Notes under the pieces: model-generated
The model's database searches: none
What the model was told of the DNA's origin: nothing
Seen by the model: the letters and a program-made list of their open reading frames with translations, nothing else
Made by a program: the position numbers and the translations under genes
Part shown: positions 18,747 to 64,000 of the stretch, in pieces
How positions within the stretch are numbered: position 1 is the first letter of the stretch
Layout of the letters: each line of letters begins with the position of its first letter
From: a virus
Lineage: Duplodnaviria; Heunggongvirae; Uroviricota; Caudoviricetes
IMG/VR virus record: IMGVR_UViG_3300006131_000005
Direction: 5' to 3' (one strand)
Length of the DNA stretch: 64,000 bases

Positions 18747-18754
18747 TGACAGCT

Positions 18755-19033: not shown

Positions 19034-19058
19034 CAAGGGCTCCTCTCTTTTATATTTT
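19024..19058 (+). terminator. Rho-independent terminator (GGAGTCCTGACAAGGGCTCC + T-run)
   Basis: Conserved hairpin family. Confidence 0.55.
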
Positions 19059-19153
19059 CCATACGCAGGTGACGGAAAAGTGTGGTAAATTGTTATCCTG
19101 AAAAATTCCCGGGTAGAAAAATCCGAAAAACAGTTTGAAAGGAGGTGTGCGCT

Positions 19154-19375: not shown

Positions 19376-19423
19376 CACCCGCTTTTATGGAGCCATCTAC
19401 AAAACGAAGGAGGTTTATACGAG

Positions 19424-19885: not shown

Positions 19886-20012
19886 GAAGACGACTCCGAG
19901 GCGGGAGCCTGCGTAAAACGCGTGGGCTCCTCGCTTTTCCCCTTTTACAAACGGCCCGCATTATGCTATAATTCGTGTTATCGGCTTGATATTTGCGAAG
20001 GAGGAGCATACA

Positions 20013-20351: not shown

Positions 20352-20364
20352 ACAGAAAGGTATC

Positions 20365-20455
20365 GTGTTGGAGGCCTCCAACACGTCATGCGGATATCCG
20401 CATGAAAAAATTTTTCGTCGATGGGCCCATCGACATTCCGTATGTATATACGGAA
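20365..20455. repeat. Cluster of four consecutive palindromes (20-bp GTGTTGGAGGCCTCCAACAC; 18-bp CATGCGGATATCCGCATG; 16-bp TCGATGGGCCCATCGA; 8-bp-arm TTCCGTAT..ATACGGAA)
   Basis: Perfect dyad symmetries in 187-bp intergenic region upstream of lipoprotein gene. Confidence 0.65.
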
Positions 20456-20537
20456 TGATACCCCTCTGAATACATAATTTATAGAAAACGGCGTCCGCGC
20501 CGAAACTCGCTTACTGAAATGTGAAAGGAGAATTTCC

Positions 20538-21737: not shown

Positions 21738-21798
21738 TTACCGCACCCAAAACATCCTCCTTTATGGAGCCAGTCCAATTTTAACAAGGAGGAACGAG

Positions 21799-21975
21799 CA
21801 TGACACGGGAAGAAATCATCGAGATGATCTCAAACATGTACCTCAAGGCGGTGGGAGCCTATCAGTGCTGTCAGAAGCACGGAAAGGAGGATCGACTGCC
21901 GCTGTTGAGGCGGGATGCGATCGTCTGCGATCATATTCTCACGCAGATCGAGAAGGCCGAGGCTAAAGCTGGATA
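21799..21975 (+). CDS. Small protein (58 aa)
   Basis: ATG after AAGGAGGAACGAGC; below ORF-track size cut-off. Confidence 0.3.
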
Positions 21976-21990
21976 AGTTCCACTACACGG

Positions 21991-22026
21991 AGGAGCCCTA
22001 TTACAGGGCTCCTCTTTTATTTTTTA
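21991..22026 (+). terminator. Rho-independent terminator (GGAGCCCTATTACAGGGCTCC + T-run)
   Basis: Conserved hairpin family. Confidence 0.6.
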
Positions 22027-22188
22027 GGAGGTAGTTTTGTGAAAAGGCTGAAACTTGGTTTTTGGCTTCGTGCGATTGCTTTCGGGGATTTCCTGCATAA
22101 TCTGAGCAACCAGGTGGTACAGAAAGCCCTCGATGCGCTGAATAATATATGCGAGGCTGAGACGAACCAGCGGAAAAAGGATTGACTC

Positions 22189-22548
22189 TTGCGCTACCAT
22201 TACGAAAAGCCCGCCATCTATCTGTCTATGTACGGCAAGCGTTATATTTGCGAGCACCCGGTCTATGGTAGCTGCACACTCTTTGAAATCAACAATAAGG
22301 GCTTGGCCGTGATACAGCAACGGTTCGATTCTGACACGAAGAGCACGTTCTGGACAGAGGTAGATCCGTGGCTGACGGACGCTTTATATTTACACCCCAA
22401 TTTCAAGGAGTTCTTTGATAGTCGGGCCGGCGCTTGTACGGACGGTCTCTATCCTACCGTAACCATCCGGCAGATCATGTGGGCGCTGAAGATGAAGCCT
22501 CTACCAAAGGAGCGGTGGGAAACTGTGTTTGACCGTAAAAATATTTGA
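22189..22548 (+). CDS. Hypothetical protein (start uncertain; upstream 49-codon GTG ORF 22038..22187 in other frame)
   Basis: TTG-initiated ORF; possible frameshifted gene. Confidence 0.3.
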   Translation: MRYHYEKPAIYLSMYGKRYICEHPVYGSCTLFEINNKGLAVIQQRFDSDTKSTFWTEVDPWLTDALYLHPNFKEFFDSRAGACTDGLYPTVTIRQIMWALKMKPLPKERWETVFDRKNI

Positions 22549-22583
22549 AAGTGGTGATATCTACGAAGAAAGTAGCATTTCAG

Positions 22584-22874
22584 ATGTCCGCATTAAACAA
22601 TAAGCAGATGTGGGTTTGCGACATCATGACGCGGCTGGGTCTTATCAAGTATACAGAATATGATGATGGCGAAATCGTGGCGCATCTGCTGGAATCTCCT
22701 ATCACCGGAAAGCCCTTGGACATTTGGTGGTGGGTCGAGAGTTCGTCTGTCGTTCACTGGATATTTTTCTTCATCTGGGGTAGCCCGCTGTGCGTTGACA
22801 AAGAGGCCAAGCAGCGCGCAAGTGAGTTGAAGCGATTGGGCTGGATCGGGCAAAAAGAAGAAACGCCGCAATAA
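22584..22874 (+). CDS. Hypothetical protein
   Basis: Internal ATG of ORF 22545..22874. Confidence 0.35.
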   Translation: MSALNNKQMWVCDIMTRLGLIKYTEYDDGEIVAHLLESPITGKPLDIWWWVESSSVVHWIFFFIWGSPLCVDKEAKQRASELKRLGWIGQKEETPQ

Positions 22875-22905
22875 ATACACGGTCTTTTGTGGAGGTGAAA
22901 AGATC

Positions 22906-23097
22906 ATGTTTCTGTTTAAGAAGAGGAAGAAAGCGAAACCTGTCGATGTCGCAAGGATTCGATTGCAAGTTGAGATGGTTCAGGTATTACTGAATAACGG
23001 TTATAGCTGGGATCAAATTTTCGATGCGATCGGATTCAGTGAGACATGGCTGAAGTTTACGCAAACCCATCTTCCCGAATGGCAAAATCGGATGTAA
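22906..23097 (+). CDS. Hypothetical small basic protein
   Basis: ATG after GGAGGTGAAAAGATC. Confidence 0.35.
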   Translation: MFLFKKRKKAKPVDVARIRLQVEMVQVLLNNGYSWDQIFDAIGFSETWLKFTQTHLPEWQNRM

Positions 23098-23193
23098 AGC
23101 ATCAACCAAGGAGAAAGGCCCGTGTGGGCCCTTTTCCTTTGCGCCATATTTACGTTCTCTTTTATGGAAATCAATCAAAAGGAGGAGCCGATT

Positions 23194-23331
23194 ATGGCAG
23201 TTATTCTGGTGGTTATTGAGATCGCGAATTTGGCGGTATCGCTTTACATCGCACGGATGCTGAAGCGCATCGGCAAGGAGCTGAACCAAATCGAAGACTG
23301 GAAAAGCATTCCGAAGAAGCACTATTTTTGA
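23194..23331 (+). CDS. Small membrane protein (45 aa)
   Basis: ATG after AAAAGGAGGAGCCGATT. Confidence 0.3.
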   Translation: MAVILVVIEIANLAVSLYIARMLKRIGKELNQIEDWKSIPKKHYF

Positions 23332-23368
23332 GTTCCACAGGAAGGAGTCCGCATGGGCTCTTTCTTTT

Positions 23369-23400
23369 CACGCGAGAAATACACCGTCCTTTATGAGAAG
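23369..23400 (+). promoter_or_regulatory. Conserved intergenic motif copy (CACGCGAGAAATACACCGTCCTTTATGAGAAG)
   Basis: Family motif after hairpin 23344..23370. Confidence 0.4.
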
Positions 23401-23429
23401 ACCCAAAAAATTTCAGGAGGTTTTATACT

Positions 23430-23624
23430 ATGAAGAAGCAAAAATGGACCGAGAAGCCCATCACCTGGGGCGGCTATTTTAAGCTGGCCGGAGTGTGCTA
23501 CGTCATCGGTATGATGATTGCGGCGTACTACTGGATCACAGCGTTCGATATCCACCCCATTGAGAGCATCAAGGACGCCATTCACCGGCGCTTCTGGAAG
23601 AAGGAAGAGACCACCGAGGAGTGA
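23430..23624 (+). CDS. Small membrane protein
   Basis: ATG after CAGGAGG; TM GVCYVIGMMIAAYYWITAF. Confidence 0.4.
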   Translation: MKKQKWTEKPITWGGYFKLAGVCYVIGMMIAAYYWITAFDIHPIESIKDAIHRRFWKKEETTEE

Positions 23625-23704
23625 GGTCTGACGAGGGAGAGCCCACACGGGCTTTTCCCTTTTCCGCAAAAAACGCATCTCCTATTGTGAAAGGAGGTGC
23701 GACG

Positions 23705-23869
23705 AATGGTAACATTTCTGATCCTGCTGTTTGCGATTCTCGCAATCGGAGTGATGGCGGTGCTCGCTTTAGGAGCGGGCGGTATCGTCATCTTCGTGAT
23801 TTTCGGGGACGTGATCATTGCGGGAGCGATCATTTACCTCATCATTCGCGCCATCTTAAGAAGGAGATA
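23705..23869 (+). CDS. Small hydrophobic protein (54 aa, 2 TM)
   Basis: ATG after GAAAGGAGGTGCGACGA; below ORF-track cut-off. Confidence 0.3.
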
Positions 23870-23882
23870 AAAGAGAAAGCTG

Positions 23883-23912
23883 GAGCCCTTTAGCAGGGGC
23901 TCTTAGCTTTTC
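23883..23912 (+). terminator. Rho-independent terminator (GAGCCCTTTAGCAGGGGCTC + T-rich)
   Basis: Conserved hairpin family. Confidence 0.5.
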
Positions 23913-23939
23913 CAGACCAATCATGAAAGGAGAAGCGTC

Positions 23940-24125
23940 ATGCCTGAAATCGTGAACAAGATCATCAGCCGTCTGGATATTTCCTCTCTCCGGTTCAAGC
24001 GGTTGGAGGAGGATAAGCGCCAGAAGCCCTCCTTGCTCAAGGAGGTCGTCTCCTCCCCGGAGAAGTTCAAACTGGAGGCCATCATCGAGGGCGACGAGAT
24101 TCAGGTCACCATCAAGAGGCGGTAA
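23940..24125 (+). CDS. Hypothetical small protein
   Basis: ATG after GAAAGGAGAAGCGTC. Confidence 0.35.
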   Translation: MPEIVNKIISRLDISSLRFKRLEEDKRQKPSLLKEVVSSPEKFKLEAIIEGDEIQVTIKRR

Positions 24126-24179
24126 AAACAAGTTCTGTTATGGAGACACCCAAACAAAACTTGAAAGGAGACAGACATT

Positions 24180-24542
24180 ATGAGCAAAATCTTGGAGTTC
24201 TCGGGGTTATCCCAGGAGGAGAAGACAGTCCGTTTCAAGGACAAGGTTCGTGAGAAGCTTCAGAGTGCCCGGAACTGGGTCGAGTGGCACAGGAACGAGA
24301 TCGTGACGTTTACGCCGGTTGTGATCGCTGGTGCGACGACCGTTATCAAAGTCGTTGGCCGGCGGGCCAACCTGCACAAGCAGGAAACGATCAAAAACCT
24401 GTACTGCTATGACCGGTCACTGGGACACTACTGGCAGCTTCGGCGGCCGCTGTCCAACAAGGAATGGCTGGCTATCGACGCCCGGAGAAAGCGCGGAGAG
24501 CGTATGGCGGATATTCTGGCGTCTATGAAGGTTTTGAAGTGA
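24180..24542 (+). CDS. Hypothetical protein
   Basis: ATG after GAAAGGAGACAGACATT. Confidence 0.45.
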   Translation: MSKILEFSGLSQEEKTVRFKDKVREKLQSARNWVEWHRNEIVTFTPVVIAGATTVIKVVGRRANLHKQETIKNLYCYDRSLGHYWQLRRPLSNKEWLAIDARRKRGERMADILASMKVLK

Positions 24543-24647
24543 CTCAGACGAGGGAGGCCCTGTAGCAAGGGCTTTTCCCTTTTATATTTCGGCCTCGCGA
24601 TGAAAACACCGCCTCTAATGAAGAACACATTTAGAGGAGGAGTTTAT

Positions 24648-24839
24648 ATGCCAAGGAAAGATTTCATCAAGGTGCTTCTGCTGACGGCCATTTGTGTGGC
24701 GGCGTTCGTAGGATATTTCTACATCGCCATACAGTACCCGTTGGTAGGAATCTATGGGACGATATTCTTCGCAATGTACCCCAAGGTCAAAAGTGTGTAC
24801 CAAAACAATCAAAAGAAGGGAGATAAGGCCGAGCCCTGA
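24648..24839 (+). CDS. Small membrane protein
   Basis: ATG after AGAGGAGGAGTTTAT; two hydrophobic helices. Confidence 0.35.
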   Translation: MPRKDFIKVLLLTAICVAAFVGYFYIAIQYPLVGIYGTIFFAMYPKVKSVYQNNQKKGDKAEP

Positions 24840-24859
24840 ACAGGGGCTCTTCGCCTTTC

Positions 24860-24889
24860 CACGCGAAAAACACATATCCTTTTATGGAG
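24860..24889 (+). promoter_or_regulatory. Conserved intergenic motif, best consensus copy (CACGCGAAAAACACATATCCTTTTATGGAG), immediately upstream of tRNA-like gene
   Basis: Family motif; here it precedes a non-coding RNA, so the TATGGAG is not a start codon context. Confidence 0.45.
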
Positions 24890-24960
24890 AAACAGTTAGC
24901 TCAATGGTAGAGCGACAGACTAAAATCTGTGTGTTGCGAGTTCGAATCTCGCGCTGCTTC
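24890..24960 (+). tRNA. tRNA-like gene with aberrant 6-nt anticodon loop (CTAAAA); anticodon undetermined
   Basis: Canonical D-arm (GCTC-AATGGTA-GAGC), perfect T-arm GCGAG-TTCGAAT-CTCGC, 7-bp acceptor stem with one A-C mismatch; 71 nt, one short of standard; followed by terminator 24972..25005. Confidence 0.5.
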
Positions 24961-24971
24961 TCCGACGGCAT

Positions 24972-25005
24972 GGAGCCCTTTGGCAGGGGCTCCTATTATT
25001 TTTGC
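24972..25005 (+). terminator. Rho-independent terminator (GGAGCCCTTTGGCAGGGGCTCC + T-run)
   Basis: Conserved hairpin family, directly after tRNA-like gene. Confidence 0.6.
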
Positions 25006-25022
25006 GGAGAAAGGAGAGACGT

Positions 25023-25322
25023 ATGCGTGAGCAGATTCTGCAAGATATCAAAGAGTCTATTATCGCCATCAGCATGGAGCTATTACACGCAGGCAAAGAC
25101 TGGTTCACACAACTCAGCTATGAGAAATGGGCCCTGCTGGAGATACAGGACCTGATTCTCCAAAATCCAGAAGCGTCTCCCTGGGATATTGTGGAGGAGT
25201 TTATCAACCTTATGGATCGGTATTCTCTTGTACCTCATCCCAATAATCACATCTTTTGTGTCGCTCATGACACCGCTTGGTCAGTCCTGGTGGAGCTGAT
25301 GGGCGAAGAACCGCTGCATTGA
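25023..25322 (+). CDS. Hypothetical protein
   Basis: ATG after GAAAGGAGAGACGT. Confidence 0.4.
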   Translation: MREQILQDIKESIIAISMELLHAGKDWFTQLSYEKWALLEIQDLILQNPEASPWDIVEEFINLMDRYSLVPHPNNHIFCVAHDTAWSVLVELMGEEPLH

Positions 25323-25339
25323 AAGGAGAACTGAAATCA

Positions 25340-25792
25340 ATGGAAATCGTAGGAAGCGTGATATTTAAGGACAAGACTTTGCCCATTTACAGCTCGCTTG
25401 ATGTGCCCCTGTTCAGGGCTTCGGACGTGGCTAAGCTGATCGAGTACAGCGACGGCAACGTCTGGAAGATGCTTGAGATGTGCGAGGCCGACGAGAAGCT
25501 GACTTTACCGATGGTAGCGCATGGCCAGAGGCGGACTGTCAGCTTCATCACGGAGACCGGCCTCTATAACATCCTTGCTCAAAGCCGGAAGCCGATTGCC
25601 CGAGCGTGGCGGCGTGTCGTCCATGAGGAACTGATTGCTCTCCGGAAGTCTCGGGGCAAGAACGTGGCCGAGCAGTTCCAGGATTGGGATGATGCCGCCG
25701 AGTCTATCTACTTCGACGAGGAGACTGGAATGATGATGCAGTCGGTTACGGTTGCCGGCGGCGATGTGGAGCAAATCCCTTATAGGCCCTAA
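25340..25792 (+). CDS. Bro-N domain protein (phage antirepressor-like)
   Basis: FKDKTLPIYSS..LFRASDVAKLIEYSDGNVWKMLE...TETGLYNILAQSRKPIARAWRRVVHEELI matches Bro-N/KilA-like N-terminal domain. Confidence 0.5.
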   Translation: MEIVGSVIFKDKTLPIYSSLDVPLFRASDVAKLIEYSDGNVWKMLEMCEADEKLTLPMVAHGQRRTVSFITETGLYNILAQSRKPIARAWRRVVHEELIALRKSRGKNVAEQFQDWDDAAESIYFDEETGMMMQSVTVAGGDVEQIPYRP

Positions 25793-25828
25793 CATTTAAC
25801 AAATGCTTTTTGAAAGGAGGCATCGACT

Positions 25829-26656
25829 ATGAAAATCCCGACCGGATTAGTGCCCAAAGCGGAGCGGTTCTTGAAAAAGGCTTCGCCGACGATCCTTACC
25901 TGCATTGGCGCGGCTGGTGTCGTGGCTACCGCTATTATGGCGGCCAAGGCGACCCCGAAAGCGTTGAAGCTGATCCACTCGGACAGCCGCATCAATCATG
26001 ATGGAGACCCGAATGCCTACACCAAGAAAGAGGCAGTGGCGTCCTGCTGGAGGTGTTACGTCCCCACGGTAATTGTCGGCGGCTCCACCATCGCCTGCAT
26101 ATTTGGGGCGAATGCTCTGAACAAACGCCAACAGGCGGCTCTTGCCAGCGCCTACGGGCTCGTGAGTCAGGCCTATAACGACTACAAGCGCAAGGTTCGC
26201 GAGAATTTTGGCGAGGAGGCCCACCGGGATATCATGCGGCAAATCGCCGCTGAACGCAGCAGTGGCGCTACGATCATCTCCCCCAATCTCATTAACGGTT
26301 CGTGCTTGGAATTTGAGGGTGCGAACGAGGAACAGCGGCTGTTCTATGACGCGATGTCTGAGCGATATTTTCAGGCTACCATCAGTCAGGTTCTCCAAGC
26401 GGAGTATCATCTCAACCGTAATTTCGCGCTTGGTGGAGGATTTATCACGCTGAATAACTTTTATGAATTTCTCGGCATTGACGGTGTTCAGGGTGGCGAT
26501 GACATTGGTTGGATGGTTTCGGACGGCCTCTATTGGGTCGATTTCGACCACAGCCGAGCCATGGTGGACGATGGTCTGAATGGTGAAGTCGAATGTTTTA
26601 TCATCGACGCGCCGTTTCCGCCGGTCAGCGAAGCGGAATACGATGAATATTTGTGA
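25829..26656 (+). CDS. Two-TM membrane protein, paralog family member 1 (unknown function)
   Basis: Shares SP(E/T)IL..IG.AG...T.IMA.KATPKAL, CY(I/V)P..IVGG..IAC, ALA.AY, LN.FY..(L/I)G(L/I)...G...GW with 27232..28017 and 29932..30915. Confidence 0.55.
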   Translation: MKIPTGLVPKAERFLKKASPTILTCIGAAGVVATAIMAAKATPKALKLIHSDSRINHDGDPNAYTKKEAVASCWRCYVPTVIVGGSTIACIFGANALNKRQQAALASAYGLVSQAYNDYKRKVRENFGEEAHRDIMRQIAAERSSGATIISPNLINGSCLEFEGANEEQRLFYDAMSERYFQATISQVLQAEYHLNRNFALGGGFITLNNFYEFLGIDGVQGGDDIGWMVSDGLYWVDFDHSRAMVDDGLNGEVECFIIDAPFPPVSEAEYDEYL

Positions 26657-26706
26657 CCGATACGCAGAAAACGCAATGACTGTTATGGAAAGGAGGTAAA
26701 CGCTTC

Positions 26707-26889
26707 ATGAGAAGGAAACGTGACACGATCAAGCTTTTGGCTATTCTTGCCACCGGCCTCGGATTTGCGGCAACGCTGCTGTCCGATTGGGCCAACAGCA
26801 AGGAGCAGGAGGCATTGATCGAGGAAAAGGTCAATGAGGCGCTCGCCAAACGCGACAAGGAAGAGAATGAAGACGAGGAGGAGTCCTGA
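26707..26889 (+). CDS. Small membrane protein with acidic tail
   Basis: ATG after GAAAGGAGGTAAACGCTTC. Confidence 0.35.
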   Translation: MRRKRDTIKLLAILATGLGFAATLLSDWANSKEQEALIEEKVNEALAKRDKEENEDEEES

Positions 26890-26905
26890 ACAGGGGCTCT
26901 TCCCC
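26881..26905 (+). terminator. Hairpin terminator (GAGTCCTGAACAGGGGCTC)
   Basis: Conserved hairpin family. Confidence 0.45.
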
Positions 26906-26925
26906 TTTGCCTGTGAGGTGAATGA

Positions 26926-27214
26926 CATGGATGCGCTTGATGCGGTAGACAAAATCCGCTGGTTCATGGAGCTTCCGGAAGCTCGCCCCGGTCTGCCCTG
27001 GGATAAGGAGTTTGAGAATCGTGCCTATATTCGCTGGGCCTGTAGTGAACTGACGCAGGATCTTATGGAGCGTCTGGATATTCCGGCCGAGATGACCATA
27101 GATGCGTTCTGGTTTCGGATGTTGCAGTTCTATCATTTCGCGGGCACTCCGAAAATGAGCAAAATCTTCCAGATCGCGATGGACACAGCGGATACAATCA
27201 AAGCAATGATTTGA
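26926..27214 (+). CDS. Hypothetical protein
   Basis: Internal ATG of ORF 26834..27214 after GTGAGGTGAATGAC. Confidence 0.4.
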
Positions 27215-27231
27215 AAGGAGATAGTTTTCTG

Positions 27232-28017
27232 ATGGATAAGCAAATGCTTGTCAATGCGGTTAAGAGTGTACGGACGGCGGCCAAACGGCACAGTCCGGAG
27301 ATACTCACCGGCATTGGCATCGCCGGCATGATTACTACGACTATCATGGCGGTTCGCGCCACACCGAAAGCTCTGACCATCATCGGCGAATGCGAGGTGG
27401 ATGAAAACCGGAAGCTCTCCAAGACGGAGGTCGTAAAAGCCACCTGGACCTGTTATATTCCGTCCGCAATCGTCGGCGGGGCGTCTATCGCTTGTCTTGT
27501 GGGCTCCACCTCCGTCAACCTTCGCCGGAACGCGGCCTTGGCGGCGGCTTACAGTTGCGCCGAGACTGCGCTGCGGGAGTACCAGGACAGGGTCGTAGAG
27601 GTCATCGGCGAGAAGAAGGAGCAGACGATCCGGGACGCGGTGGCAAAGGAACGGATCGAGAAGCATCCGGTTTCCGAGCAGCAGATTCTCTACACCGGCC
27701 ACGGTGATACCTTATGTTATGATGCTTGGTGCTCGCGGTACTTCAAATCCGACATTGAGGTGATTCGGCGGGCTATTCATGAACTGAATGACCGGCTTCG
27801 GGTGGACAATTATATTTCCCTGAACGAGTTTTATGACGCCATCGGCTTGGAAGAATCGAAAACCGGAGAAATCCTCGGGTGGAATATCGGGAAGGGCTAC
27901 ATCCAGCTTGCCTTCAGTTCCGTGTTGGCGTCCGATCTGACGCCGTTTCCGGATACGCCCTGTCTGGCGATCGACTTCCGGGTGCCCCCGCAGTACGACT
28001 ACGACCGGGGCTGGTGA
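27232..28017 (+). CDS. Two-TM membrane protein, paralog family member 2
   Basis: ATG after GAAAGGAGATAGTTTTCTG; see 25829..26656. Confidence 0.55.
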   Translation: MDKQMLVNAVKSVRTAAKRHSPEILTGIGIAGMITTTIMAVRATPKALTIIGECEVDENRKLSKTEVVKATWTCYIPSAIVGGASIACLVGSTSVNLRRNAALAAAYSCAETALREYQDRVVEVIGEKKEQTIRDAVAKERIEKHPVSEQQILYTGHGDTLCYDAWCSRYFKSDIEVIRRAIHELNDRLRVDNYISLNEFYDAIGLEESKTGEILGWNIGKGYIQLAFSSVLASDLTPFPDTPCLAIDFRVPPQYDYDRGW

Positions 28018-28047
28018 CGCGCGAAAAACGCACACGCTGTTATGGAG
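28018..28047 (+). promoter_or_regulatory. Conserved intergenic motif copy (CGCGCGAAAAACGCACACGCTGTTATGGAG)
   Basis: Family motif. Confidence 0.4.
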
Positions 28048-28087
28048 AACAATCCAAATAATTCATATTTTGAAAGGAGCAAAAACC

Positions 28088-28378
28088 ATGGAAGAGAAGA
28101 ATATGGTAGAGTTCGAGGATGTCGACAACGTCGATGAGATCGAGGAGACCGAGGAGAATACCCCGCGGCGTTCCGGGATCGGCACCTTCGGAGCCATGGC
28201 CATCGGCAGCGGCTTGACGCTGGGCGGAATCGCCCTGTTCAAGAAGTTGAAGAAAGTCATGGCTGCGAAGAAGGCCGCAAAGGAAGCTGCGGCGGAGACA
28301 TCTGAGGCCATCGAGGTCGAAGTGGTCGAAACCACGGACCCTCATTCGGAAACCCAGGAGGAGCAGCCGGCAAAGTAA
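28088..28378 (+). CDS. Acidic protein with central TM segment
   Basis: ATG after GAAAGGAGCAAAAACC. Confidence 0.4.
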   Translation: MEEKNMVEFEDVDNVDEIEETEENTPRRSGIGTFGAMAIGSGLTLGGIALFKKLKKVMAAKKAAKEAAAETSEAIEVEVVETTDPHSETQEEQPAK

Positions 28379-28462
28379 GAAGAACGAGGGGTTCGCCAAG
28401 GGAGAGTACCTATAACAAGGTGCTTTCCCTTTTGCTTTATATTTTCAGTGAGGATGGTATTT

Positions 28463-36200: not shown

Positions 36201-37401
36201 GGACATCGCCTCCATGCACCCCAGTTCCATCATCGCGGAGGAGCTCTTCGGCCCCGAGTTCACCAAGCGGTTCGAGGAGATCAAGGAAGCCCGTGTCGCC
36301 ATCAAGCACAAGGACTTTGACCGGGCCCGCAAGATGCTGAACGGCGCTTTGGCAAAGTATCTGACCGATGAGAACGCCGCTGCTGATCTGGCTCAGGCTC
36401 TGAAGATTGCCATCAACTCGGTTTACGGCCTTACCTCTGCCAACTTCGAGAACCCCTTCCGAGACAACCGGAACCGGGACAACATCGTCGCCAAACGCGG
36501 AGCCCTGTTCATGGTCAACCTCAAGCACGAGGTCCAGAAACGGGGCTTTACTGTTGCCCACATCAAGACGGACTCCATCAAGATCCCCGATGCTACGCCG
36601 GAGATCATTCAGTTTGTCACCGACTACGGCAAGCTCTACGGTTATATTTTCGAGCATGAAGACACTTATGACCGTATGTGTCTGGTGAACAATGCCGTCT
36701 ACATCGCCAAGTATAAGACCCCTCATATTGACAAAAAAACTGGGAAAGAAATCTGGTGGACGGCCACCGGGACGCAGTTCCAGGTTCCCTATGTGTTCAA
36801 GAAGCTCTTCAGTCATGAGGAGATCACCTTCGAGGACATGTGCGAGACCAAGTCGGTAAAGGATGCTCTATATTTGGATATGAACGAGAAGCTGCCGGAT
36901 GTGTCCGAGTATGAGAAAGAGCATACGACTCTATGGAAGGATATTTGCGATATGACGCTCCCTCATGATGCAGAAATGGAGCGTAAATGTGCAAGAGCCG
37001 AGGAGTTGTCTGATCTCATTGCTCAGGGTCACAACTACGTCTTTATCGGAAAGGTCGGTCAGTTCTGTCCTATGATGGACGGCTTCGGCGGCGGTGTCCT
37101 GCTTCGCCAAACGGATAACAAGAAGACCGGCGAAAAGGGCTATGCCGCTGTGACTGGCACGAAGGGCTACCGCTGGATGGAATCCGAGATGGTCAGACAA
37201 CTGGACAAGCAAGACGGTATCGACCGGAGCTATTATGACGCCATGGTGGACGCGGCTATTCAGGACATTTCCGGTTATGGTGACTTCGAGTGGTTCGTCT
37301 CCGAAGACCCTTACGTCAAGGTCGAGGACGATACCCCACCGTGGGAAAGTCCCGGCGAGCCTTGGCAGTCCGACGACAACATCGCCTTTGATGTGCGCTA
37401 A
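33271..37401 (+). CDS. Multidomain replicase: SF3/D5-like helicase (Walker [10 protein letters not shown]) - primase-polymerase (prim-pol) - 3'-5' exonuclease - family B DNA polymerase
   Basis: P-loop at aa ~185; [15 protein letters not shown] and GIHLHYIY (prim-pol); Exo I FYDVEVFP, Exo II YCDNDV; Pol motif [14 protein letters not shown], motif [11 protein letters not shown], motif [10 protein letters not shown]. Confidence 0.8.
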
Positions 37402-37429
37402 AACTACACACTCTGTTGTGGAAGGAGAG

Positions 37430-45370: not shown

Positions 45371-45402
45371 GCACGCAGAAATCACATTTCCTTCTATGGA
45401 GA
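45371..45402 (+). promoter_or_regulatory. Conserved intergenic motif copy (GCACGCAGAAATCACATTTCCTTCTATGGAG)
   Basis: Family motif. Confidence 0.4.
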
Positions 45403-45490
45403 AGAGTAAGAGACCGAAAGGCACTGAGGAAACTTGGCACCTTCAGCTTTTACTCATTCTCTGAATTTTATATTTGAAGGAGGAGCACCA

Positions 45491-54432: not shown

Positions 54433-54514
54433 GAAGTGTCAGCGTCATCTACCGCGCGAAGAAAACACCCTATATTGTGGAGAACAACACTCAACAATAA
54501 AAGGAGTTTTTGAA

Positions 54515-59004: not shown

Positions 59005-59350
59005 TCGGGCCATTTTCGCGGCCAAATCTGCTCCTACTTTTGGTAGTTCCAGGTTATATTTCTTGGCCACTTTTGTGTTTTGAAAGTGGGCAGAGGGCGA
59101 AAAAAGCGGGCATTTGGCCACTTTTGCATCGGATTTTGAGGACTCGCGAAAGAGTGAAAACGGGCATTTGGCCACTTTTTCCGGCCATTTGGCCACTTTT
59201 GAAACCCCAAAGTGGCCAGCAAAAACCCAGTATTTGCAAGGGTTTGAGGGCTCTCTGCCCACTTTGCCCACTTTTTTCTCTTAACTAATTGCGATAAAAA
59301 ATTTAAGGTATATAGTAATAAGAGCCCCAAAAAGTGGACAAGTGGCCAAA
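59005..59350. repeat. Iteron cluster: ~8 copies of GGCCA(C/T)TTT / GGGCATTTGGCCACTTTT in direct and inverted orientation, incl. palindrome GGCCACTTTTGAAACCCCAAAGTGGCC
   Basis: 430-bp non-coding region; candidate packaging (pac/cos) site, origin or operator array. Confidence 0.7.
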
Positions 59351-59369: not shown

Positions 59370-59555
59370 ATGAGCGAGAAAATCACATGGGGCGATATTT
59401 ACAAGGACTTCAAGACCCGGCTGCCTACCTGGGCGAAGCTGGCGGTCGATTACCGTCCGTATGATTACATGACCATCGTCGTATATTTTGCCGACGGTTC
59501 GAGGATGCTGTACGACGGCCTGCAAAAGCTGCCTCGACTTCTGGTGACGGTATAA
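59370..59555 (+). CDS. Hypothetical small protein
   Basis: ATG after TGAGGAGGTTTT. Confidence 0.4.
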   Translation: MSEKITWGDIYKDFKTRLPTWAKLAVDYRPYDYMTIVVYFADGSRMLYDGLQKLPRLLVTV

Positions 59556-59589: not shown

Positions 59590-59628
59590 GAGAGCCTGTG
59601 TTTGAGGAACATGGGCTCTTCTTTTTGC
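59590..59628 (+). terminator. Hairpin terminator + T-run
   Basis: GAGAGCC..GGGCTCT stem, then TTCTTTTT. Confidence 0.45.
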
Positions 59629-59640: not shown

Positions 59641-59670
59641 CACGCGAAAAAAACATGCCCTTTTATGAAG
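59641..59670 (+). promoter_or_regulatory. Conserved intergenic motif copy (CACGCGAAAAAAACATGCCCTTTTATGAAG)
   Basis: Family motif. Confidence 0.4.
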
Positions 59671-59741
59671 AGAGAGGATAAAAGCGCCATTTTTGAAAAT
59701 GACACACTTCCTCTTTTACTTTTGGAAAGGAGGGTCCGCTT

Positions 59742-60041
59742 ATGGCGAGAAGCGCACGGTTGGAGAGCGGGTTTCAGGATTGGTTAATCGTGAAGCTCAA
59801 AAAACTCTTTCCGGGTTGCATGGTGTTCAAGATGGACCAGATACAGGGTATCCCCGATCTCCTGATTCTGTACGGAGCCAAGTGGGCCTCCCTGGAGTGC
59901 AAGAAATCCGCGAAAGCCAAGAGACAGCCGAACCAAGAATACTATGTGGGGTTGATGAACAGCATGTCCTTTTCTCGTTTCATCTCCCCCGAGAACAAGG
60001 AGGAAGTATTGCGTGAACTTCAACAGGCACTCAAACCTTGA
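59742..60041 (+). CDS. VRR-NUC domain nuclease
   Basis: ESGFQDWL, GIPDLLIL, ASLECKKS, Q..QEYYVGL pattern of VRR-NUC (E..Q, G.PD, ExK). Confidence 0.55.
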   Translation: MARSARLESGFQDWLIVKLKKLFPGCMVFKMDQIQGIPDLLILYGAKWASLECKKSAKAKRQPNQEYYVGLMNSMSFSRFISPENKEEVLRELQQALKP

Positions 60042-60570
60042 AGGCCAACACGCCTTTCTCGGCGCGAGTAAGTATCACTGGATCAACTATGATGAAGACA
60101 AGGTTGCTACGGCCTTTCGTAATCATATCGCGACTCAGCGGGGGACAGAGCTTCACGATTTGGCCGCCCGTTTAATCTTACTCAGGCAGAAGCTACCAAA
60201 ATCGCAGAAGACCTTGAATATGTATGTCAATGACGCGATTGGCTACAAGATGACCCCGGAGCAGATGCTCTACTATTCAGAGAACTGCTTCGGTACCGCG
60301 GATGCTATCTCATTCAAACAGAACGTGCTCCGTATTCACGACCTCAAGACCGGCGAGATCCCCGCGCACATGGAGCAGCTTATGATTTACGCCGCTCTGT
60401 TCTGTCTGGAGTATCGGGTCAGGCCCGCCGATATCCAGATCGAACTGCGCATCTACCAGCACAACGAAATTCTCCTGGACGAGCCTACTGTAGAGGACAT
60501 CCTGCCCATCATGGACAAGATTATGACCTTCGACAAGATTCTCAAACAAATCAAAGAAGAGGAGGGATAA
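60013..60570 (+). CDS. PD-(D/E)xK (RecB/Cas4-like) nuclease
   Basis: GTELHDL, IHDLKTGE, EQLMIYAALF (D..E.K and QxxxY-like motifs). Confidence 0.45.
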   Translation: MNFNRHSNLEGQHAFLGASKYHWINYDEDKVATAFRNHIATQRGTELHDLAARLILLRQKLPKSQKTLNMYVNDAIGYKMTPEQMLYYSENCFGTADAISFKQNVLRIHDLKTGEIPAHMEQLMIYAALFCLEYRVRPADIQIELRIYQHNEILLDEPTVEDILPIMDKIMTFDKILKQIKEEEG

Positions 60571-60573: not shown

Positions 60574-63357
60574 ATGGACCCTAGTTTAGACGAAGTGTTC
60601 GGTCAGGTTGTTGAGATGGCCGAGCAAGACCCTGACATTCTGATGCACTACGGCATCGGTAAACTGGATGGCGCTCCGGGTCCTGGTTCCGGCCGCTATC
60701 CCCTGGGAAGCGGAAAGAACCCCAACCAGCGCAGCGGCGACTTCCTCTCCCGGGTGGATGAGCTTCGCAAGCAGAGGTTTACCTACACTGATAAGGATGG
60801 GAAGGTTTGGACGGGAGACAATGCCATCGCCAAGGCTATGGGCCTGACCAGCACCCAGTTCCGCACTCAGTTGGGCCTTGCTCGGGATGAGCGCCGCTCA
60901 TCTAATGTGGCTACGGCCAAACGGCTGCGCGACGAGGGCAAGACTTTGAAGGAAATTGCTGACACAATGGGTTTCCCCAACGACTCCTCCGTTCGTTCCC
61001 TGCTTAATGAGAGTTCGGAAGCCCGAATGAACCAGGCCAAGAAGACCGCTGAGTTCCTGAGACAGCAGATCGCTGAAAAGGGAATGATCGACGTGGGCAC
61101 CGGCGTGGAGCGGGAACTCGGTATCTCTAGGGAGAAGCTAAACCAGGCGCTATATATGTTGGAGATGGAGGGCTACGCTGTCTATGGCGGCGGCGTTCCC
61201 CAGGTCACCAACAAGGGCCAGCAGACAAATCTCAAGGTTCTCTGTCCTCCAGGCACGGAGCACAAGGACATCTACAACTTTGGCGAGATCCATTCTGTTG
61301 TGGATTACATCAGTCCTGACGGCGGTGAGACCTTCAAGCCGGCCTTTGTCTATCCTGAGAGTATGGACTCATCCCGGCTGAAGATTCGCTATGCCGAAGA
61401 AGGCGGGCTCCAGCGGGACGGAACCGTGGAACTTCGCCGTGGTGTGGCTGATCTGTCCCTGGGTGAGTCCAGCTATGCTCAGGTCCGCATTCTGGTAGAT
61501 GGAAAGAAGTACATCAAGGGAATGGCATTCTACGGCGATGATAAGGACTTCCCTGATGGCGTGGATGTGATCTTTAACACCAACAAGAAGAAGGGTACTC
61601 CTATGGGGGATGTCCTCAAGACCATCAAGGATGATCCAGACAATCCCTTTGGCTCCCTCATCAAGGAGCGCGGCGGCCAGAGCTACTACATCGACCCGAA
61701 AACCGGGAAGGAGAAGCTGTCTCTCATCAATAAACGGGCCGAGGAAGGGGACTGGGGGGAATGGAGCGATCATCTCCCCTCTCAATTTCTTTCTAAGCAG
61801 TCCATGACACTGATTAAAAAGCAGCTTGGCTTGGCTGCGGCTGATAAGGCGTCTGAGTTCGACGAGATCTGTGCCCTCACCAATCCCACCATGAAGAAGG
61901 CACTTCTGGCTTCCTTCGCTGACGACTGCGATTCAGCGGCCGTACACCTTCAGGCAGCGGCTTTGCCGAGACAGAAGTATCAGGTCATCCTTCCTATTGC
62001 TTCGATGAAGGACACTGAGGTCTACGCCCCCAATTACAGGGATGGCGAGACCGTCGCGCTTGTCCGTTATCCTCATGGCGGCACCTTCGAGATTCCAATT
62101 CTTAAGGTGAACAACAAGCAGAGTGAGGCGAAGCGCATCCTGGGCAACGCTCTTGACGCTATTGGCATCAACTCCAAGGTGGCGGAGCGGCTGTCCGGCG
62201 CTGACTTCGATGGCGACACTGTTATGGTCATCCCCACCGGGGGCAAGATCAAAATTACATCCACTCATGCGCTGAAAGGGCTGGAAGGCTTCGACCCGAA
62301 GCTGGAGTACGGCGGCAAACCGGAAGGTTCTTTCAAGCAGATGAAGAACACCCAGACCGAAATGGGTAAGATCTCCAATCTCATCACCGACATGACTCTG
62401 AAAGGCGCCACTGAACCGGAGTTAGCGAGGGCTGTACGGCATAGTATGGTGGTCATCGACGCCGAGAAACATCATCTCGACTACAAGCAGAGCGAGAAGG
62501 ACAACGGCATTGCCGCCTTGAAGAAGAAGTATCAGGGCTATGTGACCGACGACGGTGAGGAAAGAGGCGGCGCCTCTACCCTGATCTCAAGGGCAAAGTC
62601 CGAGGTCTCCGTTCCAAAGCGGAAAGGAAGTCCTAAGACTGACCCTGACACCGGGGAGCTGGTATGGAAGGTCGATGAGGATCGGTTCTACACCGACCCC
62701 AAGACCGGGAAGACCGTGGAGAGGCGGCAGAAGAGTACCCAGATGGCCGAGGAAAGGGACCCCTATAAGCTGTCGTCCGGCACTCCGCAGGAAGAGGCTT
62801 ACGCCGCTTACGCCAGCCAGATGAAGTCCCTGGCCAACCAGGCCCGTAAGGAGATCCTATCCACCGGCAAGATTACTTACTCCGCCTCCGCCAAAGAGAC
62901 CTATCAGACTGAGGTAGCCTCCCTGACCTCCAAGCTCAACATCGCCCTCAAGAACGCCCCCAGGGAGAGGCAGGCCCAGGTCATGGCCAACAGCGTCGTG
63001 GCCGCCAAGAAGAAGGACAACCCCGGTATGACCAAGGAGGAGATCAAGAAGGCCAGCCAGCAGGCGTTGAGCTCTGCCCGTGCTACTGTTGGCGCAAAGC
63101 GGACGCCTATCGTCATCACTGACCGGGAATGGCAGGCGATTCAGGCCGGCGCGATCAGTGAGAACAAGCTGACGCAGATCATCAACCACGCCGACATCGA
63201 CGTGCTTCGGTCTTACGCGACGCCGAGAGCGACGACAACGCTCAGCACCGCGAAGATCAACAAGATCTCGTCCATGAACGCTTCTGGTTACACCACTGCT
63301 GAGATCGCTGAAAGTCTTGGCGTCTCAACTTCCACTGTGCGAAAGTATCTCTCTTGA
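60574..63357 (+). CDS. Large protein with RNAP beta'-type ADFDGD metal-binding motif and C-terminal HTH; candidate YonO-like single-subunit RNA polymerase (tentative)
   Basis: SGADFDGDTVMVIPTGG resembles NADFDGDQMAVHVP of multisubunit RNAP beta'; C-term TTAEIAESLGVSTSTVRKYLS sigma-region-4-like HTH; no P-loop, so not a terminase. Confidence 0.35.
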   Translation: MDPSLDEVFGQVVEMAEQDPDILMHYGIGKLDGAPGPGSGRYPLGSGKNPNQRSGDFLSRVDELRKQRFTYTDKDGKVWTGDNAIAKAMGLTSTQFRTQLGLARDERRSSNVATAKRLRDEGKTLKEIADTMGFPNDSSVRSLLNESSEARMNQAKKTAEFLRQQIAEKGMIDVGTGVERELGISREKLNQALYMLEMEGYAVYGGGVPQVTNKGQQTNLKVLCPPGTEHKDIYNFGEIHSVVDYISPDGGETFKPAFVYPESMDSSRLKIRYAEEGGLQRDGTVELRRGVADLSLGESSYAQVRILVDGKKYIKGMAFYGDDKDFPDGVDVIFNTNKKKGTPMGDVLKTIKDDPDNPFGSLIKERGGQSYYIDPKTGKEKLSLINKRAEEGDWGEWSDHLPSQFLSKQSMTLIKKQLGLAAADKASEFDEICALTNPTMKKALLASFADDCDSAAVHLQAAALPRQKYQVILPIASMKDTEVYAPNYRDGETVALVRYPHGGTFEIPILKVNNKQSEAKRILGNALDAIGINSKVAERLSGADFDGDTVMVIPTGGKIKITSTHALKGLEGFDPKLEYGGKPEGSFKQMKNTQTEMGKISNLITDMTLKGATEPELARAVRHSMVVIDAEKHHLDYKQSEKDNGIAALKKKYQGYVTDDGEERGGASTLISRAKSEVSVPKRKGSPKTDPDTGELVWKVDEDRFYTDPKTGKTVERRQKSTQMAEERDPYKLSSGTPQEEAYAAYASQMKSLANQARKEILSTGKITYSASAKETYQTEVASLTSKLNIALKNAPRERQAQVMANSVVAAKKKDNPGMTKEEIKKASQQALSSARATVGAKRTPIVITDREWQAIQAGAISENKLTQIINHADIDVLRSYATPRATTTLSTAKINKISSMNASGYTTAEIAESLGVSTSTVRKYLS

Positions 63358-63375: not shown

Positions 63376-63627
63376 ATGCAGACTGAATGCGCTTTGACTA
63401 CTTTCGACAATCCGTACAATCCATTTGAACAGTTCACTGCTTGGTTTCTGTTCGATGAGACGAAAGGGTATCACACTTGCGCTTACTTGGGCAGAATCGC
63501 GCGAACTTCCAATCTGCTTTCCGATGAAGAGAACAATCGGGAAATTGAAAGAGCGATTGACGAGATCATCAAGTACGATTTCCAGAACATCTACAAGAAG
63601 GTCAGGCGGCAGCCCGTCTCTGCGTGA
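63376..63627 (+). CDS. Hypothetical protein
   Basis: ATG after GAAAGGAGTGAACTTAGTAA. Confidence 0.4.
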   Translation: MQTECALTTFDNPYNPFEQFTAWFLFDETKGYHTCAYLGRIARTSNLLSDEENNREIERAIDEIIKYDFQNIYKKVRRQPVSA

Positions 63628-63926: not shown

Positions 63927-64000
63927 CTCAACGACCTACTACACTCATTCAACTCAATATGACATAGGGGAGGTGCGAGATAAGCATACCCCCTTGGCAT

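Follow-up and report, generated by a model that had tools for sequence, protein, structure and literature searches.

A predicted single-chain two-barrel RNA polymerase with helix-turn-helix modules at both ends accompanies a promoter-like motif in a temperate gut phage

The window analyzed in this study is a 64,000-nucleotide stretch of phage DNA, and the longest ORF of the region of interest (positions 60574–63357, + strand) starts with ATG and encodes a protein of 927 amino acids. This ORF is preceded by two genes of the same operon, both on the + strand. The first encodes an endonuclease (59742–60041; phrog_93) and occupies the same position in the phages FP_oengus, Arcadia, and Secretariat, and the second encodes a PD-(D/E)XK/Cas4-like exonuclease (60013–60570; phrog_3953, E = 3.7e-84; Pfam DUF2800) with conserved synteny. 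An 83-residue ORF (63376–63627, +; phrog_4303) always lies 3′ of the polymerase gene, and small ORFs matched by position alone are found at the equivalent place in FP_oengus (gp56), Arcadia (gp97), Secretariat (gp84), and phage 1706 (orf76). The order endonuclease–exonuclease–polymerase–small ORF is conserved, 300 to 450 nt from the right genome end, in the window, FP_oengus, Arcadia, and Secretariat; in phage 1706, the nuclease genes are located elsewhere and not beside the polymerase gene. The polymerase gene closes the replication/recombination module, and no other large gene lies between it and the genome end. A terminator-like hairpin recognized in the sequence (59590–59620, +) lies just 5′ of a promoter-like motif that precedes the operon.

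The protein matched PHROG 4291 over the full length of the profile (E = 0, 1273.5 bits; residues 14–927 against profile positions 3–906 of 909). This family occurs in 250 phage genomes in GenBank, with 249 phage records covering at least 80% of the query, and forms 949 clusters at 50% identity (E < 1e-30). Full-length homologues with 48 to 53% identity include ORF75 of phage 1706, gp55 of FP_oengus, and actinophage "HTH DNA-binding" proteins, and the actinophage clusters with PHROG 4291 homologues are AM, AU, AW, DJ, CC, EL, and BI. Isolated phages carrying the family have hosts that include Faecalibacterium, Lactococcus, Arthrobacter, Gordonia, and Streptomyces, and cultivable bacteria with prophages of the family include Hungatella hathewayi, Clostridium leptum, and [Ruminococcus] torques. 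The window protein is nearly identical to a protein of an uncultured Oscillibacter, and its source is a temperate gut phage of Clostridia. The family itself had been catalogued before and is not new: PHROG 4291 and RefSeq name it "RNA-dependent RNA polymerase," most actinophage records (SEA-PHAGES annotation) name the homologue "helix-turn-helix DNA binding domain protein," and the proteins of 1706, FP_oengus, and actinophages were earlier proposed to be a putative RNA polymerase (PMC2919709; bioRxiv 10.1101/842583). The literature searched yielded two bioinformatic papers and no experimental work on any family member.

Conventional searches revealed little of the catalytic part of the protein. 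Pfam and NCBIfam returned HTH matches only. Against solved structures, the single sequence gave no informative match (best E = 0.68), and a profile built from 101 sequences gave only HTH matches in the PDB, with the P23-45 polymerase gp96 at a nonsignificant E of 0.82. The Pfam RdRP family (PF05183) was not matched by HMMER at E ≤ 1 with the whole protein or at E ≤ 0.01 with the core alone; an HHpred probability of 95.7% to PF05183 has been published for the family (10.1101/842583). Pfam and PHROGs gave no match to a P-loop, terminase, or portal family, and the protein showed no similarity to proteins of virion structure or ejection; the homologue in 1706 is likewise absent among the annotated structural proteins. 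The original prediction had also seen no P-loop and no terminase- or portal-like motif, and its reading of the protein as an RNA polymerase is supported, although the protein does belong to a recognizable family, PHROG 4291.

The structure predicted by AF2 (pLDDT 88.7) is that of a two-barrel RNA polymerase, with fold matches to QDE-1, gp62/gp64, RDR2, and β′. The nearest solved structures are QDE-1 and P23-45 gp64/P74-26 gp62, gp64 being the second closest. On the basis of the ORF, the PHROG match, the model, and the fold matches, the feature at 60574–63357 was annotated as a single-chain two-barrel RNA polymerase of the PHROG 4291 family. The β-type barrel (DPBB-B/DPBB1; residues ~265–400, 61366–61773, +) precedes the β′-type barrel (DPBB-A/DPBB2; residues ~465–556, 61966–62241, +) in the chain, as in the two-barrel superfamily. 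To assess conservation, we aligned the window protein with 100 representatives sharing 47 to 64% identity (101 sequences). The segment SGADFDGDTVMVIPTGG spans residues 541–557 (62194–62244) and includes ADFDGD at residues 543–548 (62200–62217); S541, G542, A543, D544, D546, G547, and D548 are invariant in 101/101 sequences. The loop that had first drawn attention to this 927-residue protein is thus a conserved element and not a chance pentapeptide. Also invariant in all 101 sequences are R498, P500, and H501, which place an R-x-P loop (R498-Y-P500) upstream of DxDGD in the same barrel, another feature of the superfamily. The β-type barrel, which the original prediction had expected to carry a conserved Lys/Arg, contains the basic residues R305 and K315 (in the invariant Q303-V-R305 and K315-G316), in line with the superfamily, whose β-type barrel uses basic residues to hold the NTP and the RNA 3′ end. 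It also has two invariant aspartates, D282 and D331, as candidates for the fourth catalytic aspartate of the superfamily.

In two-barrel polymerases, R-x-P is the "Pro-gate" loop and DxDxD is the metal site (PMC9508822; PMC2919709), and the role of the QDE-1 R962-x-P964 loop has been described (PMC9508822). R498/P500, D544/D546/D548, and Q303/R305 correspond to the R-x-P, DxDxD, and Q-x-R elements of QDE-1, the equivalence of Q303-V-R305 being by motif. The second barrel is followed in the model by helices 593–609 and 614–633, and this pair (MGxxSNLITDM ... DAxKH; residues 593–633, 62350–62472, +) contains invariant M597, G598, N602, L603, I604, D606, M607, D629, K632, and H633. We refer to it as bridge-helix-like from its position after the second barrel.

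The best explanation of these features appears to be a catalytically competent polymerase of the QDE-1/phage non-virion RNAP clade. The finding that Pfam detects HTHs only, and the name given in most actinophage records, would suit a DNA-binding regulator whose polymerase-like core is no longer catalytic, but every catalytic-site residue is invariant in 101 sequences at approximately 50% identity, which is not the pattern expected of a dead enzyme; we therefore give this reading hardly any credence. A true RNA-dependent RNA polymerase, copying transcripts of phage or host into double-stranded or antisense RNA, is suggested by the PHROG and RefSeq annotation and by the best structural neighbors, the RNAi polymerases QDE-1 and RDR2. 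The Q-x-R signature in DPBB1 is moreover typical of RNAi-related RdRPs, in which it replaces the first DPBB1 lysine of DNA-dependent RNAPs (PMC9508822). The RdRP name is nonetheless a homology transfer, and QDE-1 itself is also DNA-dependent and acts on single-stranded DNA (PMC9508822). The characterized phage members of the clade, gp64 and gp96, as well as the more distant YonO, copy DNA templates (PMC10770324; PMC5467207), and the fused HTHs and the co-inherited DNA motif described below point to DNA, so that an RNA template is very unlikely. Both database names, "RNA-dependent RNA polymerase" and "HTH DNA-binding protein," are probably misleading for what is likely a DNA-dependent transcriptase.

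The catalytic core is flanked by predicted DNA-binding modules. Near the N terminus, the motif HYG...SGRYPxGSG..PxQ (residues 25–52, 60646–60729, +) has invariant G27, S39, G40, R41, G45, and G47 and nearly invariant H25 and Q52, in a region predicted to be disordered (pLDDT below 50). Helical HTH-like modules follow at residues 57–170 (60742–61083, +), as indicated by model helices and weak HTH matches: residues 103–160 gave weak HTH-type PHROG matches, and the profile gave weak matches in the PDB to the HTHs of lambda CI, a resolvase, and a transposase. An N-terminal HTH of the family has been published (10.1101/842583). A tandem HTH region occupies the C terminus (residues 845–927, 63106–63354, +; Pfam matches and model helices at 850–926). 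It includes YTTAEIAESLGVSTSTVRKYL within residues 904–927, which exceeded the curated Pfam cut-offs for Sigma70_r4_2 (PF08281; 31.5 bits, cut-off 25.7) and Sigma70_r4 (PF04545; 26.7 bits, cut-off 24.1), confirming the C-terminal HTH that had been proposed. The sigma-70 region 4 match spans approximately 24 residues (profile positions 25–48 of 54), and many generic HTH families score alike; the sequence match thus shows an HTH of the general sigma-70 region 4 type and not a sigma factor.

The window also contains a promoter-like motif of approximately 30 bases, CGCGAAAAAWACA-N4-CTWTTATGRRRR, with an information content of 26.6 bits. It occurs in 24 copies on the + strand and none on the − strand, as compared with zero or one copy in composition-matched (mononucleotide) shuffles, in agreement with the more than 20 intergenic copies noted originally. 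Copies 1 to 10 lie at 14384–14415, 14652–14683, 15439–15470, 15781–15812, 16158–16189, 16448–16479, 17549–17580, 17805–17836, 18716–18747, and 19363–19394, and copies 11 to 17 lie at 21740–21771, 22865–22896, 23140–23171, 23369–23400, 23663–23694, 24116–24147, and 24594–24625. Copy 18 (24860–24891) abuts a tRNA-like gene (24890–24960), and copies 19 and 20 are at 26661–26692 and 28018–28049. Copy 21 (37394–37425) directly follows the DNA polymerase gene, copies 22 and 23 are at 45372–45403 and 54453–54484, and copy 24 (59641–59672; PWM score 39.3) stands before the endonuclease–exonuclease–polymerase operon. Most copies follow a terminator hairpin and precede an RBS by 10 to 40 nt. A text search of the literature for the motif sequence returned nothing relevant.

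The motif is found with the same spacing in FP_oengus, Arthrobacter phage Arcadia, Gordonia phage Secretariat, and Lactococcus phage 1706, and it therefore accompanies the polymerase in phages of two bacterial phyla, Actinobacteria and Firmicutes. In phage 1706, which is AT-rich, the window PWM did not detect the motif, and the 1706 version was recovered with a relaxed pattern. The actinophages have a perfect TATAAT as the downstream box, 1706 has TATAGT, and the window has TTTTATGG. Across 80 metagenomic loci, 172 copies are on the + strand and one is on the − strand. In 101 of 103 loci (62/62 viral and 39/41 genomic), the polymerase start has a copy 860 to 1402 nt (about 950 nt) upstream of it, and the late region is nearly free of the motif (two + and one − matches in 316 kb). 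These comparative data strongly suggest that the polymerase and the motif form a pair.

A role in replication, with the enzyme making a primer or R-loop at an iteron cluster close upstream of its operon, in the way that T7 RNA polymerase activates the T7 primary origin, would suit a gene at the end of the replication/recombination module beside two nuclease genes, one for an endonuclease and one for an exonuclease. The iterons, GGCCACTTT/TGGCCAAAA, are clustered 300 to 700 nt upstream of the operon in the window, FP_oengus, and Arcadia, and the action of QDE-1 on single-stranded DNA would agree with such a role. However, the 1376-residue DNA polymerase encoded in the window already carries a primase-like region, and the 24 strand-specific copies before genes would be left unexplained. 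We consider this function improbable as an alternative, and it could coexist with transcription.

We next considered which polymerase reads the motif. The possibility that the phage RNAP is active but that host polymerase, perhaps with a phage factor on the upstream half, reads the motif, leaving the phage enzyme to transcribe the motif-free late genes, for structure and lysis, as one long operon in the manner of YonO, is in our view rather unlikely, yet several observations favor it. The TATAAT and TATAGT boxes of the actinophages and 1706 could be used by host sigma-A, which counts against a phage transcriptase, and the motif is missing from the late region. The polymerase operon always stands behind the motif, as would be expected if the host enzyme transcribed it early. 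The genome end bearing the polymerase gene probably enters the cell first, as far as entry order can be inferred, and the gene would then need host transcription. In the gut lineage, by contrast, the motif (157 sites) has no −35 element at 16 to 18 nt and no TG extension, and an A at the −11-equivalent position is found in only 38% of sites. On the basis of this 157-site matrix, we rejected the sigma-70 reading for the gut lineage; for the actinophages and 1706 it is possible. From TAT to the beginning of the tRNA-like gene there are 5 nt in the window and 3 nt in FP_oengus, which would place the start inside the motif, and sigma-70 geometry does not fit such a start. This argument is weakened by the fact that, among the relatives checked, the tRNA abuts the motif only in these two related phages. 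A host sigma factor would also not explain why CGC-N7-ACA and its spacing are conserved across phages of Actinobacteria and Firmicutes. Furthermore, when the 3 kb downstream of the gene at 38 non-redundant loci were searched for a conserved late promoter, no obvious candidate emerged, and the conserved words there belonged to a cos-like inverted repeat where contigs end. No conserved sigma factor has been reported for the phage group, and the polymerase-like HTH protein is its only conserved gene with a transcription-related annotation (10.1101/842583).

On balance, the evidence leans toward a promoter-specific, DNA-dependent transcriptase of the QDE-1/non-virion RNAP clade that reads the motif for early and middle genes. 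A more detailed version, which we put forward tentatively, is that one chain combines the two-barrel RNAP with sigma-4-like and other HTHs that recognize a bipartite promoter of 30 nt, CGC-N7-ACA-N4-C-TWTWRT-purines, that transcription starts after TAT, and that enzyme and promoter are co-inherited in actinophages, Lactococcus phages, and abundant gut Clostridia prophages, with self-driven feedback. In this scheme, binding of the upstream half (CGCGAAAAAWACA) of the ~30-nt promoter would fall to the HTH modules at the two ends and melting of the downstream CTWTTATG box to the catalytic core, and synthesis would start at the purine run directly after TAT. In this way, the polymerase would transcribe 24 short early/middle transcription units and also its own endonuclease–exonuclease–polymerase operon, giving positive feedback; the motif-free structural genes might be reached by read-through across cos or be left to host polymerase. 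Because the polymerase gene lies behind the motif in nearly all relatives, the first molecules would have to come from elsewhere, such as host read-through or co-injection. T7 gene 1, for comparison, is not behind a T7 promoter.

Single-chain two-barrel RNAPs have been taken as models of what the ancestral transcription enzyme may have been. What is new here is the promoter-like motif tied to the polymerase. The combination of fused HTH modules with a sharply defined, co-inherited motif makes promoter recognition directly testable, and the motif offers a ready map of transcription units for a widespread group of gut prophages. If the proposal is true, the promoter grammar of a single-chain two-barrel RNAP that carries its own specificity domain would be defined for the first time.

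The proteins of 1706, FP_oengus, and the actinophages share the HTH ends, the operon synteny, and the motif with the window protein and show no essential difference from it. QDE-1 and RDR2 have approximately 11 to 14% identity to the phage protein, in which no slab, head, or dimerizing tail has been shown; unlike them, the phage protein is the product of a dsDNA phage and carries predicted DNA-binding HTH modules at each end. The virion RNAP gp66 of phi14:2, a crAss-like phage, belongs to the same superfamily and the same QDE-1-like clade (PMC10770324). P23-45 gp64 and P74-26 gp62 are approximately 600 residues long and lack fused HTH domains, and gp64 sets a precedent for the proposal in that it reads a motif that is strongly conserved and lies in multiple copies upstream of early genes. 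Transcription of their own gene depends on a separate RNAP, which is carried in the virion as a fusion to the tape measure protein, and no second polymerase of this type was seen in the window. YonO of the Bacillus prophage SPbeta, a temperate Firmicutes phage, is a single-chain two-barrel RNAP of 839 residues with RxPH followed by DxDGD, as in the window protein, and has been grouped with the 1706 family as "YonO-like" (PMC2919709). The resemblance to YonO in the original prediction holds at the level of the superfamily, in the two-barrel fold, but not as significant similarity: hhalign with the 101-sequence profile gave a probability of 0.2%, and the best BLASTP match had an E of 1.1, with the RxPH...DxDGD stretch aligning at 1.5. 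Membership of the YonO family was rejected because both comparisons were negative. YonO has no reported HTH, unlike the window protein, and serves one late operon with a single promoter, for which the specifying sequence features have not been defined (PMC5467207). That precedent for late-gene transcription counts against an early/middle transcriptase; the window, by contrast, has 24 early/middle motif copies and none late. T7-type RNAP is a phage enzyme specific for its promoters, which are long and nearly identical to one another and reach as far as the start site; the initial transcript that follows them is rich in purines. With its unrelated right-hand fold, this enzyme is a functional analogue only.

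The polymerase gene (60574–63357, + strand) starts with ATG, is by far the longest ORF of its region and encodes 927 amino acids, of which residues 541 to 557 read SGADFDGDTVMVIPTGG. The last 24 residues matched Pfam Sigma70_r4_2 (31.5 bits; cut-off 25.7), Sigma70_r4 (26.7 bits; cut-off 24.1) and many generic helix-turn-helix (HTH) families, and no Pfam or NCBIfam model matched the rest of the protein. The original prediction was therefore right that ordinary domain searches recognize nothing enzymatic here. The claim that the protein has no recognizable family did not hold: PHROG 4291, which carries the name "RNA-dependent RNA polymerase," covers residues 14 to 927 end to end (1273.5 bits). 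Using tblastn, we found full-length relatives with 48–53% identity in 250 phage genomes, including phages of Arthrobacter (95), Gordonia (55), Streptomyces (54), and Lactococcus (13), as well as Faecalibacterium phage FP_oengus; they are annotated as "RNA-dependent RNA polymerase," "putative RNA polymerase," "helix-turn-helix DNA binding domain protein," or "hypothetical." Large protein collections contain at least 8000 family matches, and the family forms 949 clusters at 50% identity (E < 1e-30). The exact window protein is already on record, and one cluster member, almost identical to it, is attributed to an uncultured Oscillibacter. Prophage copies with 60–76% identity are present in Clostridium leptum DSM 753, [Ruminococcus] torques ATCC 27756, Hungatella hathewayi, Enterocloster lavalensis, Cuneatibacter, and many Lachnospiraceae and Oscillospiraceae MAGs. 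Ruprich-Robert and Thuriaux (2010) placed the protein of Lactococcus phage 1706 in one of five "YonO-like" two-barrel protein families, described as having eight invariant active-site residues in common (PMC2919709). Koert et al. reported an "HTH protein," with HTHs at both ends and a match to Pfam RdRP by HHpred, as the signature gene of a supercluster comprising actinophage clusters AM, AU, AW, DJ, CC, EL, and BI, the Lactococcus 1706-like phages, and FP_oengus (10.1101/842583). The window protein is thus a member of a known, catalogued, uncharacterized family, which means that identifying it as a polymerase is not new; in the literature searched, we found no family member with biochemical or transcriptomic data.

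The window protein was aligned with 100 representatives (47–64% identity), and its structure was predicted from that alignment with a mean pLDDT of 88.7 and a pTM of 0.82; only the first ~55 residues and the loop 247–255 were uncertain. In a Foldseek search against the PDB, QDE-1 chains ranked first (E 1e-8 to 3e-7, probability 1.0), followed by the non-virion RNA polymerases P74-26 gp62 and P23-45 gp64 (E 6e-6 to 8e-6); maize and Arabidopsis RDR2 and β′/Rpb1-type subunits (E from 5e-3) also matched. Among predicted viral structures, the matches were other phage proteins named "RdRP" and P23-45 gp64. The model contains a first β-rich domain (residues ~265–400), connector helices (403–458), a second β-rich domain bearing the ADFDGD motif (~465–556), and two long helices (593–633), and this order of elements agrees with the single-chain clade. 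Invariant in all 101 sequences are D282, Q303, R305, K315, G316, and D331 in the first of these domains, R498, P500, H501, and S541-G-A-D-x-D-G-D548 in the second, and M597, G598, N602, L603, I604, D606, M607, D629, K632, and H633 in the helices. R-x-P is known as the "Pro-gate" loop, DxDxD as the metal site, and Q-x-R in the first barrel as the signature replacing the first DPBB1 lysine in QDE-1-type enzymes (PMC9508822); for the window protein, the first-barrel equivalences rest on motif and order only. With a second barrel predicted, DFDGD in a loop that is invariant apart from its phenylalanine in 101 of 101 sequences, and homology to structural proteins not found, the two-barrel RNA polymerase reading was not refuted. 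We consider it very probable that the window protein is an active nucleotide polymerase, and probable that it uses DNA templates. Within the N-terminal region disordered in the AlphaFold2 model (pLDDT below 50), residues 25–52 (window 60646–60729) contain an invariant or nearly invariant HYG...SGRYPxGSG..PxQ; such conservation suggests that a partner, e.g., the packaging machinery or a host factor, recognizes it as a short linear motif.

The window represents the genome of a temperate siphovirus, in circular or virion permutation. The phage is marked as temperate by a tyrosine integrase (13138–14382, − strand), which has a zinc ribbon at its N-terminus, and by the prophage copies in Clostridia genomes. 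The gene order is tail genes, a diversity-generating retroelement, the minus-strand integrase, a long run of small plus-strand genes, a 1376-aa primase-polymerase, a helicase, an endonuclease (59742–60041, +), an exonuclease (60013–60570, +), the polymerase, and a conserved 83-aa ORF (63376–63627, +; phrog_4303). In the retroelement, the reverse transcriptase gene (8047–9270; Pfam RVT_1, phrog_1423) adjoins a 111-nt template repeat (7764–7874), the variable repeat (7486–7596) lies at the 3′ end of a 957-aa tail protein gene (4746–7619), and 17 of 18 mismatches between the repeats are adenines in the template copy. FP_oengus, Arthrobacter phage Arcadia, and Gordonia phage Secretariat all have this endonuclease–exonuclease–polymerase–small ORF block. 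The 1706 genome likewise ends in the polymerase gene and small ORF, although its nuclease genes lie apart from them. In all relatives examined, from both phyla, a small ORF comes directly after the polymerase gene, and the 83-aa product in the window is a candidate accessory factor. The long noncoding stretch upstream of the operon contains iterons GGCCACTTT/TGGCCAAAA in both orientations (59008–59347; five exact and six one-mismatch copies), with all exact copies in the window confined to this interval. Related iterons occupy the equivalent place in FP_oengus (26905–27083) and Arcadia (3777–4020), and the cluster may serve as a replication origin or be bound by an HTH module of the polymerase. 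Beyond the operon, the distance from the polymerase stop codon to the right genome end is 324–430 nt in three cultured phages with defined ends, and approximately 20 IMG/VR contigs end 170–550 nt past the gene, most at 290–450 nt. An inverted repeat, TATAGGGGGG-N10-CACCCCCTCC, followed by CATCGCGGCGGTCTT and CCCCGGGGG, is conserved where contigs end (300–470 nt after the stop in L016, L025, L040, L044, L059, L068, and L101) and is likely the cos region. A related sequence lies at 63964–63996 in the window, whose very end reads ATAGGGGAGGTG...CCCCCTT.

The original prediction counted more than 20 copies of an intergenic motif, and a position matrix built from the window repeat families agreed, finding 24 sites of this ~30-nt bipartite promoter-like element, all on the plus strand and none on the minus strand (26.6 bits; shuffled sequences gave 0–1). 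Of these, 19 fall between 14.4 and 28.0 kb and one starts at 28018; many have a GC-rich hairpin and T run before them and a ribosome-binding site (RBS) 10–40 nt after them. The early region (14600–28450) repeats a cassette made of such a hairpin, the motif, an RBS, and a small gene. Several of the hairpins form repeat families of their own (D5, D9–D11, D15, and D16), and the first motif copy (14384) starts 2 nt from the integrase start codon on the opposite strand. Farther along are the sites at 37394, 45372, 54453, and 59641; because it lies between a terminator hairpin (59590–59620) and the endonuclease gene, the 59641 site heads the polymerase operon. The same matrix found 12 plus-strand sites in FP_oengus, 10 in Arcadia (eight intergenic, of the form CGCGTAAATTACAnGGGCTATAATGA), and 12 in Secretariat (TTCGCAnnnATTACACGCCCTATAATGAGACC), and a relaxed pattern found 15 in the AT-rich 1706, 11 of which read CACAtGTTTTACAnnnnCTATAGTAGA; none of the four had a minus-strand site. 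The columns and spacing kept across lineages are C-x-C, seven bases, ACA, four bases, C, and then T-W-T-W-R-T. Eighty metagenomic loci (31–52% GC) had 172 plus-strand sites versus one on the minus strand, and 157 distinct sites gave CGCGAAAAAWACA-N4-CTWTTATG followed by four purines. All 62 viral loci and 39 of the 41 genomic loci carried a motif copy ahead of the polymerase gene, at a distance of 860–1402 nt (median 950) from its start. Up to and including the polymerase gene, 362 kb contained 54 plus-strand and no minus-strand sites, versus two and one, respectively, in 316 kb downstream (structural genes). In L068 (8927–9086), L071 (8998–9155), and L074 (8900–9093), a hairpin with a T run and a tRNA-Met gene, in that order, separate the operon motif from the endonuclease gene; a weaker hairpin is in the matching place in the window (59684–59705), and such hairpins may be leaders or attenuators. 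Neither a link of the family to a defined, co-inherited promoter-like motif nor a conserved promoter before the polymerase operon was found in the literature searched, and the text of Koert et al. nowhere mentions promoters, intergenic motifs, or transcription (10.1101/842583). The family and its motif therefore offer an attractive system for studying how promoters are found by a single-chain two-barrel enzyme that carries its own HTH modules.

Which polymerase reads the motif we infer from several observations. The upstream half and spacing are conserved in phages of both Actinobacteria and Firmicutes, which calls for a conserved phage-encoded reader, and the polymerase-like HTH protein is the group's only conserved gene with a transcription-related annotation (10.1101/842583). 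In the gut lineage, the motif has nothing like TTGACA 16–18 nt upstream and no TG extension (157 sites), and only 38% of sites have an A at the equivalent of −11; judged by these features, it is not σ70-like, which also favors the phage enzyme. In the actinophages and 1706, the downstream box is a perfect −10 element, a point against the phage enzyme. A tRNA-like gene whose anticodon loop is shortened, and to which ARAGORN assigns no amino acid, starts 5 nt after the motif TAT in the window (24890–24960; Rfam 49.1 bits) and 3 nt after it in FP_oengus (2936–3005; 47.9 bits). A transcript including this tRNA-like gene must start inside the motif, which in these two related phages would be closer than a σ70 −10 element allows and is again a point for the phage enzyme. 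In favor of host reading, the polymerase gene itself is always behind the motif, so that the first polymerase molecules need another source; the 1706 homolog is absent from the annotated structural proteins of that phage, which counts against injection. The single σ70-like consensus match within 58.6–64 kb, TTGCGA-16-TATAGT (59289–59316), might provide host-driven read-through into the operon; it is followed by a 61-aa ORF (59370–59555), for which no family match was found, and then by the terminator hairpin.

Known enzymes supply one further argument on each side. "YonO-like," as the protein was originally called, stands in the broad working sense used in the literature but does not extend to detectable membership of YonO's own family: against YonO (839 aa, from the SPbeta record), hhalign with the family profile gave a probability of 0.2% and BLASTP nothing significant, with one subthreshold segment (E 1.5) aligning VRYPH...ADFDGD with LRSPH...FDNDGD. 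The QDE-1 and gp64 branch is closer to the window protein. YonO transcribes a late operon, in line with host reading of the motif, whereas P23-45 gp64, whose solved fold is the next closest, recognizes a multicopy, strongly conserved motif before early genes and leaves late genes to the host RNA polymerase, which is a point for the phage enzyme. With four points for the phage enzyme and four against it, we therefore regard host reading, with the phage enzyme making late RNA, as rather unlikely and slightly favor the polymerase as a promoter-specific early and middle transcriptase that reads the motif.
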